This document shows, piece after piece, positions 6,171 to 48,476 of a stretch of 64,000 nt of DNA. How positions within the stretch are numbered: position 1 is the stretch's first letter; each line of letters begins with the position of its first letter. Under the pieces are notes generated by a model, which did no database searches, was not told where the DNA came from, and saw only the letters and a list, made by a program, of their open reading frames with translations. A program made the translations under genes and the position numbers. The DNA comes from a virus (taxonomy: Duplodnaviria > Caudoviricetes): IMG/VR virus record IMGVR_UViG_3300017716_001697, positions 160,001 through 224,000 of that record; one strand, 5' to 3'.

Positions 6171-6554
6171 ATGCAATTTGAAGATTTAAACCTTAAAGAA
6201 CGTCAGGCGTATGTAAAACACCGTACGCAGGCTAATATGCACATGCTACAGAGCAAGAAGGCTAAGAGCTCGCGTAGCAAATTTCACCTTAACATGGCAC
6301 AATTTCACAAGAACGCAATGTGTGAATTGTTACAACTGTTTGAAGCTGATCAAATAATTGCAAAATTACAAAGCGTAGGTGATAAGCCGAAACCAGATCC
6401 TGATTCATGGTGGTCTGCCCCAGCCGGCTTCACTGTTTTAAAACAACAGGTAATAGCACACTCCCGGACGTTGCGTGCGCAGTGGTTTTTAGAACCGACA
6501 TTAGATATAGAAATAATAGGCACATATGGGACTATAGTATGGCCAAAGAAATAA
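6171..6554 (+). CDS. Hypothetical protein
   Basis: 127 aa ORF in tightly packed operon. Confidence 0.6.
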   Translation: MQFEDLNLKERQAYVKHRTQANMHMLQSKKAKSSRSKFHLNMAQFHKNAMCELLQLFEADQIIAKLQSVGDKPKPDPDSWWSAPAGFTVLKQQVIAHSRTLRAQWFLEPTLDIEIIGTYGTIVWPKK

Positions 6555-6790
6555 TATCTCACAAAGATAAATTAGGGCAACCTATTGAAGAAGGAATGCA
6601 CGTTGTAGCATGCCATAGAAATTCTATCTACATATGCAAGGTAACAAAAGTACACCCTAAACAACTCCGAATACACAATGTATCGAAGAAAGGCTATGGC
6701 AGTGACTCGGATGGATGGTTGGTTTACCCCTTCGAAACTGTTATACTTAGTGGTCCAGATGCACTGGCCTATATTCTAAAATATGCATAA
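6539..6790 (+). CDS. Hypothetical protein
   Basis: Likely start ATG 6539; SH3/KOW-like composition (GQPIEEGMHVVA). Confidence 0.55.
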   Translation: MAKEIISHKDKLGQPIEEGMHVVACHRNSIYICKVTKVHPKQLRIHNVSKKGYGSDSDGWLVYPFETVILSGPDALAYILKYA

Positions 6791-7043
6791 TTCTATAACA
6801 AGAAAACTAACAGCAACATGGACCATCGACGAGGTGGATGTGTTCCCTGTTAGACTAACACCGGCAGAAATCAGTGAATTGTCTGAAGAAGAACAGGCTG
6901 ATCTTATTATAGATAAGCTTACAAATCCGCCTGTGAAGAAAACACTTATGGAAGAAATTGCAGACAGGATTGCAGATCAGATGGCAGCAGATATAGATAA
7001 GGCTGTAATGGATGAACTTATGGGCAATTTAGATGACGTATGA
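6783..7043 (+). CDS. Small protein with major-capsid (gp23)-like peptide segments
   Basis: TRKLTATWT and IADQMAADIDKAV flank an EEQADLIIDKL motif shared with the next two ORFs. Confidence 0.55.
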   Translation: MHNSITRKLTATWTIDEVDVFPVRLTPAEISELSEEEQADLIIDKLTNPPVKKTLMEEIADRIADQMAADIDKAVMDELMGNLDDV

Positions 7044-7230
7044 AGAAGAAGCCGATGCGATAATCGATAAGTTAAGATATGCACCTATAAAGCCTATCCC
7101 ACCTTACTTGTCATTTTCGCATTTTTCGAACACACCACCGGTAAATCCTATTGCAGGTAATTTGTGGCTCGATACAGTGTCTTATGTGACTAAAATTTAT
7201 AATGGACGCACATGGGTAATATTGTCGTGA
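7033..7230 (+). CDS. Small protein, EEEADAIIDKL motif plus virion-fibre-like motif
   Basis: PPVNPIAGNLWLDT...KIYNGRTWV resembles tail-fibre/baseplate repeats. Confidence 0.5.
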   Translation: MTYEEEADAIIDKLRYAPIKPIPPYLSFSHFSNTPPVNPIAGNLWLDTVSYVTKIYNGRTWVILS

Positions 7231-7571
7231 ACACGGTATTAACAGAAGAACAAGAGGCTGACGAAATTGTAAGAAGATTACAAACAGCTGGCAGAATAGA
7301 TAACAATGTCCTTACCGCGGAAATTTATATATACCCGGTAAAGCGCATAAGACAGGTACCGATTTATATCATGAGTGAAGCTGAAGCCGAAGCCGAAGCC
7401 GATAAGATAATTGAAAAATTAAAGGCCCCACCAAAAAAGACATTACGCACATTGGGTAGGGAATGGGGTTTTGAGATAACAGACACTATAGAATACTGCG
7501 TTGACTTCGATGCAGAAAAAGAATTAACAGCTATATTGCAAGAAGAAATTTTAAAGGGAATATTGGAATGA
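7212..7571 (+). CDS. Small protein with C-terminal gp23-like segment
   Basis: RTLGREWGFE...DAEKELTAILQEEI in register with T4 gp23 RQLKAAYSIE...DADAELSGILATEI (recalled). Confidence 0.6.
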   Translation: MGNIVVNTVLTEEQEADEIVRRLQTAGRIDNNVLTAEIYIYPVKRIRQVPIYIMSEAEAEAEADKIIEKLKAPPKKTLRTLGREWGFEITDTIEYCVDFDAEKELTAILQEEILKGILE

Positions 7572-23374: not shown

Positions 23375-23402
23375 TTGACTGTATCCCTGCACCTGTTATA
23401 AT
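23375..23402 (+). promoter_or_regulatory. sigma70-type promoter
   Basis: TTGACT-N16-TATAAT with TG. Confidence 0.7.
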
Positions 23403-30470: not shown

Positions 30471-30929
30471 ATGAAAATCGTAACTAAAGTTGGTAACTTG
30501 CTCAATGTGAAGCGAGGACACATTGTACATGGATGCAATGCACAAGGGGTAATGGGCAGTGGTGTAGCACTTGCTGTCAAAAACATGTATCCAGCAGCAT
30601 TCGAAGATTACAGAGGTATCTTCGAAGACGAGGGACTTGAGCTCGGTTGGGCATATCCTTTTATGCCAGATACGGAACCGTTAGTAATATGGAATGCAAT
30701 TACGCAAGAAGGATTTGGCCAACCAACCCGCAATTGTAGTTACGATGCCATTCAGACATGTTTTCAACAAATCAACGAAGCTGTGGCAAACACGGCAGAT
30801 TTGGGTATTCCGCAGGAGATTCATATTCCTGCTATCGGTGCAGGACTTGGCGGTGGTAACTGGGAAATTATCCGCGAGATTATTGAACAGACAGTCACCT
30901 TCCCAACTACTTTGTGGGTTTTGCAATAG
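30471..30929 (+). CDS. Macro domain protein (ADP-ribose processing)
   Basis: GNLL, IVHGCNAQGVMGSGVA, PAIGAGLGGGNW. Confidence 0.88.
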   Translation: MKIVTKVGNLLNVKRGHIVHGCNAQGVMGSGVALAVKNMYPAAFEDYRGIFEDEGLELGWAYPFMPDTEPLVIWNAITQEGFGQPTRNCSYDAIQTCFQQINEAVANTADLGIPQEIHIPAIGAGLGGGNWEIIREIIEQTVTFPTTLWVLQ

Positions 30930-32380: not shown

Positions 32381-32408
32381 TTGACAATTACTGTAGTAAT
32401 AGTATAAT
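32381..32408 (+). promoter_or_regulatory. sigma70-type promoter
   Basis: TTGACA-N16-TATAAT. Confidence 0.75.
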
Positions 32409-33498: not shown

Positions 33499-33872
33499 AT
33501 GAGTTACAACTGTTTGGTAAGAAAGTGTTTGCTAGGATGAAAATGCGCCGCGGCAAAGAAAGTCTACGCACACGGCTTTGGTGGAGATTTATGCCCGGTA
33601 CCTACATACATATGAATTGGCCTACAGGCCCTGTAAATGTTAAAAATCCATGCGGAGAAATTTTCCTACACATGCCCGGTCCAGACTCAGCTGACCCAAA
33701 TGATCACTGGCGTGCATGGTTAGAACGAGAAGTAGGTAAACAGGGCATGGCGTGGGACTGGGAGGTTGGTTCAATAGGCGGGCCACAAACACATGGTCAG
33801 GATACCGTAGTGATTAAGTTTAGATTCGATAAAGGGAGTGTTGCAACAGCATTCAAACTAATATATGGATGA
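33495..33872 (+). CDS. FKLRW-family protein with N-terminal extension
   Basis: WLEREVGKQG...KGSVATAFKLIYG. Confidence 0.65.
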   Translation: MNELQLFGKKVFARMKMRRGKESLRTRLWWRFMPGTYIHMNWPTGPVNVKNPCGEIFLHMPGPDSADPNDHWRAWLEREVGKQGMAWDWEVGSIGGPQTHGQDTVVIKFRFDKGSVATAFKLIYG

Positions 33873-34227
33873 AGAATTTAGAAAAATAATGCTCCCTATG
33901 ATTCGGAGGATAGCGCCTGCCCTAATTGCGCAAGATATGCTCGGTGTGCAGCCAATGGCGTATCCGACTAAATTATCGTATACTACTGGTGCAGATTATT
34001 CAATTGAAAATCCATTTGAAATAGAGTGGCACTGGGTCCAAACAAGATCGCCATTTATTTTCAGTCTAAAGTTTGGAAAGAAGCCACCACTCACCGATAT
34101 GGAAGACTGGTGTAACGAAGCGTTTGGCGCGGACCAGACAACATGGAAAACGCATCTGTCAAAATACTATTTTAAAGAAGAAGAAATGCGCACCATGTTT
34201 ATTCTAAGGTGGTCAAATGAGTTATAA
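33865..34227 (+). CDS. FKLRW-family protein with N-terminal Gol-like capsid peptide
   Basis: IMLPMIRRIAPALIAQDMLGVQPM plus WCNEAFG...YFKEEEMRTMFILRW. Confidence 0.7.
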   Translation: MDEEFRKIMLPMIRRIAPALIAQDMLGVQPMAYPTKLSYTTGADYSIENPFEIEWHWVQTRSPFIFSLKFGKKPPLTDMEDWCNEAFGADQTTWKTHLSKYYFKEEEMRTMFILRWSNEL

Positions 34228-34470: not shown

Positions 34471-35118
34471 ATGCCACAAATTATCGCATGGCAATGTGCT
34501 AACACAAAAAAGGTGTTTGTTGAAAAAGATGATTACACTAAACATCTTCGTAAACTTGCTAATGAGCGTAGAAAAGACAAACGGTATGCAGACCTAAAGA
34601 CCAATTTTTATAATTGGCTTACAGCAGAAAAAGAGAATATTCATTCTGTTACTGAAATTGCATCCTGGGTGTTGCTAAATCAGAAGAAGTTGATGGACGC
34701 ATCTAATGCTCTTAAAATCGGAACATTCACCAATGACAAATATTTTGACGATGATGAATTTATAAAATTCATGTTAGTTGATATGCGTTACTCGCAATCT
34801 GTAAGTAACACTCATTCATGCCCACACAACGGTGTGCAGAACTGGCGTGGTGACACTAAATTAAAAGATGGGACACCTGCACCAAATGGTTATCCCGGAT
34901 GGGCCGGAAACATTAAAGGCGCATTGAGCCGCAACAAGAACAGAATGGGGTCTTATCCATATGACAACATACTAAAATTGATTAGACTACACACCGGCAC
35001 CGGTGGCGGCGGAAATGAAAGTTGGGGATACGATTGCAAGATTTTTCTTGCCGATTGGCCAGGACTCTCAAATCAAGTGTTATTTGACAAATTAAAGGGC
35101 GTAAAAATAACCAATTGA
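34471..35118 (+). CDS. Hypothetical protein
   Basis: 215 aa. Confidence 0.7.
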   Translation: MPQIIAWQCANTKKVFVEKDDYTKHLRKLANERRKDKRYADLKTNFYNWLTAEKENIHSVTEIASWVLLNQKKLMDASNALKIGTFTNDKYFDDDEFIKFMLVDMRYSQSVSNTHSCPHNGVQNWRGDTKLKDGTPAPNGYPGWAGNIKGALSRNKNRMGSYPYDNILKLIRLHTGTGGGGNESWGYDCKIFLADWPGLSNQVLFDKLKGVKITN

Positions 35119-35183: not shown

Positions 35184-36278
35184 ATGGCTACACTTGATAC
35201 TTCCCGCGTTGAACGTCCCCGTGATGTACGCACACTTTTGACACGCTGCATGAAGGTGGGTCGTCCTGCAATGATCTGGGGTCCTCCCGGCATTGGCAAG
35301 TCTGAACTGATTGCAGAAATTGGTTTGGAAACCGGGCGCCCTGTTATCGACATGCGTTTGCTGTTGTTGGAACCAACTGACATTAAGGGCATCCCATACT
35401 TCGACGTTGACACAAAGACAATGAAGTGGGCTCAACCTGCAGATTTGCCAACAGATACGCATCTGGCTGACGCAATCCTGTTCCTGGACGAAATTAACGC
35501 TGCCGCTCCTAGCGTGCAGGCTGCTGCGTATCAGTTGATTCTGAATCGCCGAGTTGGTGAATATCACCTGCCTAAGGGTGTTAGCATGGTGTGTGCAGGT
35601 AACCGTGACAGCGACAAGGGTGTTACATATCGTATGCCAAGCCCGCTGGCAAATCGTTTGGTGCACATCGAAATGACTGCTAACTTCGAAGACTGGCAGA
35701 AATGGGCGATCGGTGCAAAGATTCACGCAGACGTGGTTGGCTTCTTGTCGCACCACAAGCAAAAGCTGTTTAACTTCGACAGCAAGAGCCCAGACAAGGC
35801 ATTTGCTACACCGCGTAGCTGGGTGTTCGTTTCGCAACTGATTAGCGACGACATGCCAGAATCGATGAATACATCGCTGGTCGCTGGTACAGTTGGTGAT
35901 GGTCTGGCTACTGAGTTTGCATCGCACCGCAAGGTTGCATCTAAGATGCCTAAGTCGGAAGACGTGCTGTTGGGCAAGGAAAAGACGCTCAATGTCAAGG
36001 ACCTGAGTGCTATGTACTCGCTGACGATCTCTATGTGCTACACACTCCAAGAGTGGGTTGCAAAGGCTAAAGCCAAGGAAGATGGCTTCGACGTTAAGGC
36101 GTGGCACGAATGTGTCGACCGGTTCTTTGAATTCATGATGGACAACTTCCAGACTGAAATGATTGTGCTGGGTGCTAAGACTGCGCTGCGTGACTATCAG
36201 CTGCCAATCAACCATCGTGAACTGAAGAAGTTTAAGGCCTTCCACGACAAGTTCGGTAAGTACATCCTGGAAGATTAA
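35184..36278 (+). CDS. MoxR-like AAA+ ATPase
   Basis: Walker A GPPGIGKS, Walker B LFLDEIN, AGNR, PLANR. Confidence 0.92.
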   Translation: MATLDTSRVERPRDVRTLLTRCMKVGRPAMIWGPPGIGKSELIAEIGLETGRPVIDMRLLLLEPTDIKGIPYFDVDTKTMKWAQPADLPTDTHLADAILFLDEINAAAPSVQAAAYQLILNRRVGEYHLPKGVSMVCAGNRDSDKGVTYRMPSPLANRLVHIEMTANFEDWQKWAIGAKIHADVVGFLSHHKQKLFNFDSKSPDKAFATPRSWVFVSQLISDDMPESMNTSLVAGTVGDGLATEFASHRKVASKMPKSEDVLLGKEKTLNVKDLSAMYSLTISMCYTLQEWVAKAKAKEDGFDVKAWHECVDRFFEFMMDNFQTEMIVLGAKTALRDYQLPINHRELKKFKAFHDKFGKYILED

Positions 36279-36290
36279 TAACAGGCAACA

Positions 36291-36320
36291 ATAAAACCCG
36301 CCTGGTGCGGGTTTTATTTT
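36291..36320 (+). terminator. Intrinsic terminator
   Basis: ATAAAACCCGC-CTGGT-GCGGGTTTTATTTT. Confidence 0.85.
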
Positions 36321-38253: not shown

Positions 38254-39453
38254 ATGGCAGACAACAGTCCAGAAGCAGTACTAGAACAACTTACACGAGC
38301 ACGAATTTCGTTGTTGCTCCAACAACCATTTTGGGGCACATTGGCCACACGTCTTATTCTGCGTGACAAGACCGACGACGAATGGTGCAAGACCGCAGCA
38401 ACTGATGGTCGCTATTTTTACTACAATCGCGATTTCATTTCTAAGCTGAACAAGCAGGAATGTATTTTCTTGATGGCACACGAAGTTGAGCATTGCGTGT
38501 ATGATCACATGGATCGTCGTGGTAGCCGCAAGCCTAAATTGTGGAATGCAGCCGCAGACTATGTTATCAACTGGGAGTTGCACGAACATAACATCGGCAA
38601 ATTGCCAGACGCAAAGACATCCGGTGTGCAGGCATGTTTTGATCCAAAGTACAAAGGCATGTTTGCTGAAGAAGTGTACGAATTGTTGATGCAAGACCCG
38701 GACAAACAATATCCGGAATTTGATATTCACCTCGAACCAGGTGATGGCAAGGGCGAACCTATGTCGTCCGAAGAACAACGTGTACTCAGCGACGAAATTC
38801 GTAATGCTGTTATGCAAGCCGCTAAAGGCGCATCCGGTGGTAATGTACCGGCTGGTGTAAAGCGCATGTTGAAGGACTTAACTGATCCACAGATGGATTG
38901 GCGCGAAATCTTGAACATGAAATTGCAGTCCATGGTTAAGTCTGATTTTACATGGGAGCGTTGCTCGCGTAAAATGCAAGCAAGCGGTATCTATCTGCCA
39001 GCAACCAAGAATGATTTCAAGGTTAAAGCAGCAGTGGCAATCGATTGTTCCGGGTCAATGGGCGACGATATGTTGCGTGATTTGCTGTCTGAAACCAAAG
39101 GCATTATGCAACAGTTTATGGACTTTGAACTCGAAGTGTGGTGCTTTGATACAAAGGTGTATAGTTACGAAAAATATACACCAGACAACCTCGATGACAT
39201 TGACAGTTACGAAATCAAGGGTGGTGGCGGCACTGACTTTGTGTGTAACTTCGACTTCATGAAAGAGAAGGGTATCGAACCAGAACGCTTCATTATGATG
39301 ACAGACGGTTATCCATGTGGTAGCTGGGGTGATGAAAATTACTGCGATACGTTGTTCCTGATTCACGGTGATCCTGGTCGCAGGTTAGTAGCACCGTTTG
39401 GTATGACAGCATGGTACGAGCCAGATAGTCATTCTCCTGGTAAGAAAAAATAA
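38254..39453 (+). CDS. Putative metallopeptidase + VWA-like domain protein (MoxR partner)
   Basis: TAATDG, HEVEH (HExxH), LWNAAADYVIN; C-terminal IDCSGSM, GGGGTDF, MTDGY. Confidence 0.88.
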   Translation: MADNSPEAVLEQLTRARISLLLQQPFWGTLATRLILRDKTDDEWCKTAATDGRYFYYNRDFISKLNKQECIFLMAHEVEHCVYDHMDRRGSRKPKLWNAAADYVINWELHEHNIGKLPDAKTSGVQACFDPKYKGMFAEEVYELLMQDPDKQYPEFDIHLEPGDGKGEPMSSEEQRVLSDEIRNAVMQAAKGASGGNVPAGVKRMLKDLTDPQMDWREILNMKLQSMVKSDFTWERCSRKMQASGIYLPATKNDFKVKAAVAIDCSGSMGDDMLRDLLSETKGIMQQFMDFELEVWCFDTKVYSYEKYTPDNLDDIDSYEIKGGGGTDFVCNFDFMKEKGIEPERFIMMTDGYPCGSWGDENYCDTLFLIHGDPGRRLVAPFGMTAWYEPDSHSPGKKK

Positions 39454-47631: not shown

Positions 47632-47973
47632 ATGGAAGAAGATCGTACACAGTATACATTCACATTCAACCCGAATGATGAAAAATCATTCAATCGAATT
47701 AAAAGTAGATTGGATCCAGAAGAATATACAGTTGACGAAGAAATTCGCAAGGTTGATGAAGAGCAAGGCAAATATAGCGACCTAACTACCAAAATGACTA
47801 TGGTGCCGGAAGCAGCATCAACATTCCGCTTTGGGATGAAGGAAGTTAAGATCCGTCGGTATCGCACAGAAGCAGAAGAAGCCGAAATTAAGGCCCAGGA
47901 AGAAAAGAACAAGATCTCAATCACCATTAAGGTCGACGGGTGGGATGGTACAGGGCCACTACCTAAGATTTAA
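47632..47973 (+). CDS. Hypothetical protein
   Basis: 113 aa, AGGAG RBS. Confidence 0.65.
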   Translation: MEEDRTQYTFTFNPNDEKSFNRIKSRLDPEEYTVDEEIRKVDEEQGKYSDLTTKMTMVPEAASTFRFGMKEVKIRRYRTEAEEAEIKAQEEKNKISITIKVDGWDGTGPLPKI

Positions 47974-48476
47974 TGGGCTTAACTGAAGAGCAAATCTGCG
48001 AACTTATAGCGTGTAAGGATTTGGATACATTCTGTGCTAAAATAGGGCATCATCCTCTTAAGATGGTGTTCGATCTTAAACAGATTATGTATCCAACCAG
48101 AGCGGACATAATTGTCTATATGCTGTGGTCAGTGATATACAATTTCGATAAAACGTATTTCATTATAGAAAATTCTATAACACAATGCAGAGAGACAATG
48201 CGGCAATTTTATCAGCTAGCTGCTAGACTGCCTATGTGGATGCAACCCGAACCTTGGAAAATGCAAAGTGCATGCATTGATTTTGCAAACGGGTGTAAAT
48301 TAAGGACAATCAGTAATAGCACAAATTTAAGAGGATGGACAATATCCGGTGCTATGATATCCACTGACATTGTTGGTGAGAAGTCACAGAAACTTTGTCA
48401 CGATCTAATACCTGCTATAATATCTAACCGACCTATAATAGAATTCAACAATGGAGCAGAAATATGGGACACATAA
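47973..48476 (+). CDS. Degenerate terminase large-subunit ATPase-like fragment
   Basis: YNFDK...LPMWMQP...IDFANG...LRG...LIPAIISNR parallels T4 gp17 FNKDK...LPDFLQP...IELDNG...VRG...IQPVISSGR (recalled); no Walker A. Confidence 0.6.
   Translation: MGLTEEQICELIACKDLDTFCAKIGHHPLKMVFDLKQIMYPTRADIIVYMLWSVIYNFDKTYFIIENSITQCRETMRQFYQLAARLPMWMQPEPWKMQSACIDFANGCKLRTISNSTNLRGWTISGAMISTDIVGEKSQKLCHDLIPAIISNRPIIEFNNGAEIWDT

Follow-up and report, generated by a model that had tools for sequence, protein, structure and literature searches.

The closest described system is that of the Gol stretch of gp23, the capsid protein of bacteriophage T4. The isolated Gol peptide binds domains II/III of EF-Tu and lets the Lit protease cut EF-Tu (PMC3014915). 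This stretch is sufficient for function and is the most conserved part of gp23, 13 of its residues were found to be needed for activity by scanning mutagenesis, and, in view of its conservation, EF-Tu binding was proposed to be a property of every T4-type capsid protein (PMC3014915). For bacterial anti-phage systems, Lit, CapRel, Thoeris and CBASS variants among them, the capsid protein is one of the most frequent triggers; in addition to the capsid protein, CapRel-SJ46 responds to a second trigger, Bas11 Gp54, which is described as an activator (PMC13728456). Our literature searches revealed no description of a phage countermeasure that copies a defense trigger, and no account of small phage proteins resembling Gol or of capsid decoys encoded by phages.

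The T4 internal proteins IPI-IPIII are small polymorphic accessory proteins in which a conserved peptide at the N-terminus is followed by a separate body; one of them, IPI, is an injected anti-restriction protein. The CpmB protein of SaPI copies the C-terminus of the scaffolding protein of the helper phage.

In this work we analyzed a DNA window of 64,000 nucleotides that spans bases 160001-224000 in the genome (364,576 bp, with direct terminal repeats) of a giant freshwater phage. One of its genes (the mimic gene, Table 1) encodes P0001, which, as judged from its sequence, appears to be a phage accessory protein of the mimicry type, with a capsid motif that is already known as its building block.

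P0001 shares with the T4 Gol/EF-Tu/e14 Lit system the homologous stretch, and the conserved block of the P0001 family ends about where the Gol core ends; in T4 the peptide works alone, outside the capsid protein. Unlike Gol, which is internal to a late structural protein of 521 aa, the stretch in P0001 is N-terminal, in a probably early protein of 120 aa, and is joined to an unrelated domain. With the capsid N-arm of the PF07068 family, P0001 has in common a score above the gathering cut-off and the R-R...P..IA..I.GVQPM signature, but it is devoid of profile positions 45-376. Since the HK97-type body located there (E-loop, spine helix, P and A domains) is missing in P0001, the latter is not a capsid protein. 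The internal proteins IPI-IPIII resemble P0001 in this two-part layout and in being accessory, whereas their targeting sequence has another origin than the capsid protein and is cleaved off by the prohead protease, for which P0001 has no evident site. In CpmB, as is proposed for P0001, a short peptide of a morphogenetic protein is grafted on a small unrelated protein and competes for a binding site; however, CpmB is encoded by a phage parasite and copies a scaffold, while P0001 would represent a phage copying its own capsid protein. Bas11 Gp54 is, like P0001 in our proposal, a small non-structural phage protein that meets a capsid sensor, but no capsid similarity is reported for it in PMC13728456, in contrast to the direct copy of a capsid motif in P0001.

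Table 1. Features of the mimic-gene locus and capsid-like segments on other small proteins (positions are those of the window unless otherwise indicated)
Feature	Position	Strand	Gp23 profile positions	E-value	Remarks
Mimic gene (protein P0001)	33865..34227	+			Intact ORF, 120 aa plus stop
Capsid N-arm/Gol-like module, P0001 residues 7-31	33883..33957	+			Aligns with T4 gp23 93-117 and own capsid protein 59-83
'FKLRW' domain, β-β-α-β-β-α (predicted), P0001 residues 38-117	33976..34215	+			W82-C...F-G...W94...F103...F112-x-L-R-W116
Upstream gene, 134 aa	33468..33872	+			C-terminus ...AFKLIYG; stop overlaps mimic-gene start by 8 nt
Downstream gene, 78 aa	34217..34453	+			Chassis family; C-terminus ...MFILKYTT; overlaps mimic-gene end by 11 nt
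215-aa gene	34471..35118	+			No assigned function; neighbor of the mimic gene in orthologous loci; slot marker in mimic-less relatives
σ70-type promoter, TTGACA-16 nt-TATAAT	32381..32408	+			12/12; heads the operon containing the mimic gene
Intrinsic-terminator-like hairpin	36290..36318	+			After the AAA ATPase gene
True major capsid gene of the phage, 390 aa	genome 341179-342351				Separate gene, about 147 kb from the mimic gene
Window ORF	6171-6554		129-163	0.007	Below Pfam cut-off
Small protein of G002	L148:231-488	-	164-197	1.6e-4	Below Pfam cut-off
Small protein of G001	L147		170-198	4.5e-3	Below Pfam cut-off
Chassis-family protein of another phage (Pfam search of L141:320-586)	L141:317-586	-	170-197	4.3e-3	Below Pfam cut-off
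Chassis-like protein of G004	L149:231-494	-	298-324	7.4e-3	Below Pfam cut-off

The capsid-like module, its carrier domain and the family

Orthologues of P0001 were revealed in two other metagenomes, with only 61-73% identity. Gene finders had called both of them too short; when read from stop to stop, they have the same M-D start, the same overlap and the complete N-terminal peptide. The start codon of P0001 is thus supported by both orthologues, in which this ATG is retained and likewise overlaps the 3' end of the preceding gene. The 134-aa upstream gene adjoins the mimic gene in two related phages too.

An initial annotation of the window had described a Gol-like peptide at the N-terminus of this ORF, detached from the capsid and carried on a mini-protein. 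The peptide is real and corresponds to residues 8-35 of P0001, and its parallel with T4 Gol proved significant in four comparisons. Pfam PF07068 (Gp23) matched residues 4-45 with an E-value of 1.9e-9 and 37.9 bits (gathering cut-off 24.4), and PHROG 138 (major head protein) matched P0001 with an E-value of 5e-8. Alignment to Gol and to the phage's own capsid protein, proposed as a check of the annotation, gave by BLASTP 17/37 identical residues between P0001 9-45 and T4 gp23 95-131 (E 1e-7) and 18/40 between P0001 7-46 and own capsid 59-98 (E 6e-11). The Gol sequence cited in the annotation is indeed found in gene 23 of NC_000866. The detachment from the capsid body also holds true. The PF07068 match covers only positions 3-44 of the 376 profile positions. 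When the PDB was searched with the profile of 80 family members, T4 gp23 chains were the sole matches (E about 2e-6).

The consensus of the module is K-[VI]-[LI]-[IL]-P-x-I-R-[KR]-x-x-P-x-x-I-A-x-x-I-x-G-V-Q-P-M. Eleven of its residues (R14, R15, P18, I21, A22, I25, G27, V28, Q29, P30 and M31) are common to T4, the own capsid protein and the mimic consensus, while positions 16, 17, 19, 20, 23 and 26 are variable. At the sequence level P0001 is homologous to gp23 in the region of about 93-122, which we take to be the Gol region. By the BLASTP offset, the conserved block 7-31 of the family corresponds to gp23 93-117 and would essentially be this 29-residue region. Scanning mutagenesis of Gol was reportedly the work of Copeland and Kleanthous in 2005.

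The own capsid protein of the phage shares 77% identity with its counterpart in Pseudomonas phage PA5oct. The P0001 peptide has 45% identity to the own capsid protein and 54% to the capsid protein of Xanthomonas phage XacN1; in terms of these identities, its own and distant capsid proteins are at roughly equal distance from it. The idea that it was captured once and recently from the own capsid gene was rejected, given the 371 clusters of the family (see below) and the identity of only 45% to the own capsid. A BLAST match between the own capsid protein and ORF 264761-265144 was low-complexity noise.

The remaining part of P0001 forms the carrier. When AlphaFold2 was supplied with 80 sequences, most 10-residue blocks of residues 38-117 were predicted at pLDDT above 90, with strands at 40-45 and 53-59, a helix at 76-87, strands at 94-97 and 100-103 and a helix at 106-116; with 3 sequences only, the pLDDT was 45. 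Residues 1-37 were modeled as a low-confidence helix (pLDDT about 60) unpacked against the domain. Thus, according to the predictions, the peptide is exposed and not packed on its own domain, and the domain 38-117 is unrelated to the capsid fold. Fold searches with the domain returned only generic two-layer α/β matches (ACT, SUI1, DCoH-like) with Z up to 5.9, and the functional leads that these might have offered were dropped as too generic at Z ≤ 5.9. None of Pfam, PHROG and NCBIfam contains a named family for this domain, and the nearest Atlas clusters are viral hypothetical proteins.

P0001 carries the C-terminal motif ...MFILRW and the signature W-C-x2-[TA]-F-G ... W ... [YF]-x-F-x2-E-x-[DM]-R-T-x-F-x-L-[RK]-W, and paralogues exist in the genome, where the C-terminal half of the profile has eleven more matches. 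P0001 belongs to an uncatalogued chassis family of jumbo phages, for which we use 'FKLRW' as a working name. The signature and the paralogues bear out the initial assignment of the peptide to an FKLRW mini-protein chassis. Arrays of chassis-family genes occur in other phages as well; one of them (L141:317-3027) comprises about nine such genes including a local Gol-type mimic at 1303-1716.

An exhaustive profile search over 1.84 billion representative proteins at E ≤ 0.001 revealed 371 clusters (50% identity), of which 51 reached E ≤ 1e-10; most of the 371 align over the whole query. In total, 152 proteins from this search were scored with separate profiles for the module and domain halves. Both halves were present in 117 of them, always with the capsid-like module at the N-terminus; in these two-part proteins the module starts at a median residue of 9, and the median length is 123 aa. 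The module alone was found in 31 of the 152 proteins, which are true capsid N-terminal fragments or other designs, and the carrier domain alone in four. Among 50 members, 47 match Pfam Gp23 through the N-terminus alone, and no other family was matched by any of them. The mimic family is old and widespread, and hundreds of uncultivated phages appear from these profile matches to carry the same two-part design. Among 50,697 records of isolated phages, tblastn with three family members matched only genuine capsid genes. A word-index search with P0001 returned its two orthologues only, and the same search with the peptide alone returned nothing.

In the alignment of 80 members, the near-invariant columns are P11, P18, A22, Q29, P30 and M31 in the module and W82, W94, F103, F112 and W116 in the domain. 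The information content of the columns is high only at positions 7-31 and drops abruptly after M31 of GVQPM. In the three orthologues, the module is conserved at least as strongly as the remaining protein. Because conservation is confined to 7-31 and collapses after M31, coinciding with the T4 Gol core, the pattern is that of a putative autonomous binding peptide.

Operon, genomic setting and distribution among relatives

The mimic gene belongs to an operon in which a perfect promoter is followed by overlapping small genes including that of P0001, the 215-aa gene, a gene for a MoxR-like AAA ATPase and a terminator; the hairpin is likely the end of the transcription unit. Near-consensus σ70-type sites (≥ 11/12) are present genome-wide in 80 copies on the + strand vs 7 on the - strand, with about 7 per strand in shuffled sequences; they are thus ten times over-represented on the coding strand and are clustered in small-gene regions. 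No site of this quality is found in the region 300-340 kb of the genome, just upstream of the capsid gene. The T4 late-promoter motif TATAAATA is not enriched in the genome, and none is located near the capsid gene. The perfect promoter and the genome-wide distribution of the sites, that is, consensus and not expression, suggest that the P0001 operon is probably transcribed early by the host polymerase. The early-type character that had been ascribed to the operon is supported in the same consensus-based way, by the 12/12 promoter and the enrichment on the coding strand. The strand-biased sites can serve as a usable map of likely early transcription units.

The mimic operon lies outside the structural-gene region. 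In other contigs, family members are located in small-gene arrays or beside replication and recombination genes.

It should be mentioned that the window contains further near-consensus σ70-type promoters at 23375, 27849, 37729, 38202, 40286, 43715 and other positions. The MoxR-like AAA ATPase is encoded at 35184-36278, directly downstream; a DUF2201 protein (putative metallopeptidase plus VWA-like domain) is encoded 2 kb beyond it, at 38254-39453, and a Macro-domain protein 3 kb upstream, at 30471-30929. The ORF at 47973-48476 gave no Pfam match at E ≤ 1, and its reading as a dead terminase-ATPase fragment is not supported by Pfam.

To compare close relatives, we searched 16 related IMG/VR records with capsid proteins 80-97% identical, three complete genomes (G002, G004 and G005) among them. 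The capsid gene is present in all three complete relatives, while the mimic gene is lacking in two. G002 and G005, whose capsid proteins are 95-96% identical, contain no second copy of the module. G004 contains a 138-codon frame (L126:1546-1962, - strand) with a Gol-like module (Pfam Gp23, E 3.9e-9). This frame consists of a capsid-propeptide-like start, the acidic segment E-E-I-E-A-E-K-I-I-E-K-L, the Gol-like module, the first E-loop strand and a stop, and is a second way to express the capsid N-terminus alone.

The slot of the mimic gene was compared using the conserved 112-aa and 215-aa neighbors as markers. Where three genes are found here, G004 has a single, different one of the chassis type; the G002 region has undergone rearrangement, and its 112-aa orthologue is next to yet another chassis gene. 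Since the slot holds other genes in relatives and two complete relatives are without the mimic, the mimic gene is an exchangeable cassette rather than a core gene. With an early promoter (by consensus) and a patchy distribution in variable arrays, it has the features of an anti-defense-type gene.

Proposed function of P0001

We tentatively propose that P0001 may be a competitive capsid mimic that blunts capsid-sensing abortive infection, a reading that in our estimate falls short of an even chance. It is favored because of the significant homology to gp23, the family-wide two-part build, the confined conservation, the predicted exposure of the peptide, the ability of the isolated T4 Gol peptide to bind EF-Tu, the early-type operon, the accessory distribution with orthologues of only 61-73% identity, as in a fast-evolving cassette, and the other capsid motifs suggested on small proteins. 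Both the binding partner of P0001 and its action as an antagonist instead of an activator are what we infer. According to this proposal, P0001 would be an accessory, probably early protein displaying a free flexible copy of the N-arm/Gol on a compact carrier of 80 residues. It would occupy, before the capsid protein appears, a cellular factor recognizing the linear motif on new capsid protein; in T4 this factor is EF-Tu and, via EF-Tu, the Lit suicide protease. The bulky domain right after GVQPM would make the complex non-productive, and the capsid-sensing abortive-infection system would be blunted, not triggered. The main weakness of this reading is that the free Gol peptide is an activator in T4. 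Because free Gol activates Lit there (PMC3014915), P0001 acting as a mere decoy would do harm, were it not converted into an antagonist by the attached domain.

A morphogenetic role fits the sequence equally well, because the same T4 segment contacts the portal and putatively the scaffold core and holds capsid-length mutations (PMC9546572). P0001 would then be an internal injected protein or a tuner of assembly or size, whose N-arm copy binds the scaffold core, the portal whiskers or neighboring subunits. The copied stretch includes the sites of the T4 capsid-length mutations A94V and G97S and of M98, which contacts the portal; in the unexpanded T4 head, the gp23 N-terminus as far as residue 105 is disordered and presumably contacts the scaffold core (PMC9546572). 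A capsid-propeptide-like N-terminus is kept in some family members and in the G004 variant. The T4 internal proteins are likewise polymorphic accessories with a conserved N-terminal address. We nevertheless hold this role to be unlikely: the capsid gene is about 147 kb away from the mimic gene, whose operon has a σ70-type promoter and consists of small accessory genes, the mimic gene is missing in two of three complete close relatives with nearly the same capsid protein, and P0001 has by eye no [LI]-x-E site, a motif that is that of the T4 prohead protease and may not be that of this phage. It is quite unlikely, in our opinion, that the module takes over EF-Tu independently of defense, binding it like Gol and modulating translation or recruiting EF-Tu/GroEL-directed folding. 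The gp23 N-terminus is said to direct proteins to GroEL, as Snyder and Tarkowski reportedly found in 2005, which would agree with such a take-over. So would the preference of Gol for EF-Tu:GDP and its inhibition of the EF-Tu GTPase (PMC3014915). However, the other capsid motifs on small proteins are left unexplained in this way, sequestration of EF-Tu would hurt phage translation too, and the patchy distribution speaks against a core function.

The remaining two explanations appear still less probable. The copied motif is the most conserved part of T4-type capsids, the mimic is as near to distant capsids as to its own, and expression is probably early, all of which would suit a dominant-negative capsid interface that poisons the assembly of co-infecting or superinfecting T4-type relatives. 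Yet this motif is also that of the own capsid protein, so that the phage's own assembly would be poisoned, and we regard such interference as very unlikely; we know of no precedent for it. Finally, the peptide could be a functionless by-product of a recombination event within a cassette array that fused the 5' end of a capsid gene to a chassis gene. Chassis genes do sit in fast-turning arrays, but the peptide has been kept over 371 clusters with six near-invariant residues, is conserved like the hydrophobic core of the domain, and in the three orthologues does not fall behind the rest of the protein, so that this origin is hardly credible.

A complex prediction for E. coli EF-Tu with GDP and residues 1-45 with the family alignment gave a score of 0.00; being without controls, it is evidence neither way. 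The family is a natural set of hundreds of variants presenting the conserved T4-type capsid motif alone. It makes testable the questions of why Gol is the most conserved part of gp23 and whether EF-Tu binding is common to all T4-type capsid proteins. For the very abundant small 'FKLRW' proteins of jumbo phages, it also provides a first clue to function, namely that they carry short interaction peptides. If P0001 is an antagonist, as the capsid-mimic proposal has it, it would represent a new anti-defense class, which could be found as short capsid-motif matches in small early genes.

Possible other capsid motifs on small proteins

If conserved capsid epitopes are copied, other capsid motifs would be expected on small proteins, and such motifs were seen in weak matches (the last five rows of Table 1). 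Gp23 is the best or near-best Pfam match for all five proteins, and the same Pfam search in 14 control bacterial genomes gave no match at E ≤ 0.05. In a profile-profile comparison, the L148 and L147 proteins together with window ORF 6783-7043 matched the capsid spine helix 183-212 with a probability of 78% and an E-value of 1.9e-5. Besides the capsid protein, the window ORFs at 6171 and 6783 are the only places in the genome with the strand motif R-x-L-x-A-x-W-[TSF]-x-[ED]. Each of these matches is weak alone; taken together, they point to the display of several conserved capsid motifs on small proteins. The claim of the initial annotation that the FKLRW chassis can carry other captured payloads receives weak support: Gp23 matches do occur on the chassis proteins of L141 and L149, but they lie below the cut-off.

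A broader reading, which we consider doubtful, is that jumbo phages of this group possess a panel of early mini-proteins that antagonize capsid-sensing immunity, each displaying one conserved linear motif of their own capsid protein on a common small carrier. The panel might include the N-arm/Gol, the E-loop strand R-K-L-x-A-x-W-T-x-E, the spine helix A-x-E-I-x2-E-I-D-x-E and the motif Y-Y-C-P-Y-I-P. If true, this would amount to a general counter-defense strategy of 'epitope display'.

A cluster of small ORFs composed of recurring short modules is located at 6171-7571 of the window (6171-6554, 6783-7043, 7033-7230 and 7212-7571). One module is a strand like the capsid R-K-L-S-A-R-W-T-F-E and another a helix like the capsid spine helix, while the third is the acidic E-E-E-A-D-x-I-I-x-K-L-x2-P-P, present once or twice per protein. 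An acidic segment is also found directly before the Gol-like module in P0121, P0126, P0139 and G004, the pattern in the G004 region being E-E-x-E-A-E-x-I-I-x-K-L-x2-P-P.

The L148 mini-ORF, which has the capsid-strand/spine-helix segments, starts right after an upstream stop codon and lacks an ATG, GTG or TTG there; an unusual start, read-through or decay may account for this. The L141:317-586 protein, encoded about 1 kb from the local mimic, has the N-terminus L-A-D-E-I-R-K-E-I-D-F-E-I-M, which resembles the capsid spine helix; a word-index search found no relatives of it. The C-terminal tail of the L149 protein contains Y-Y-C-P-Y-I-P, which is identical to a conserved motif near the capsid C-terminus.
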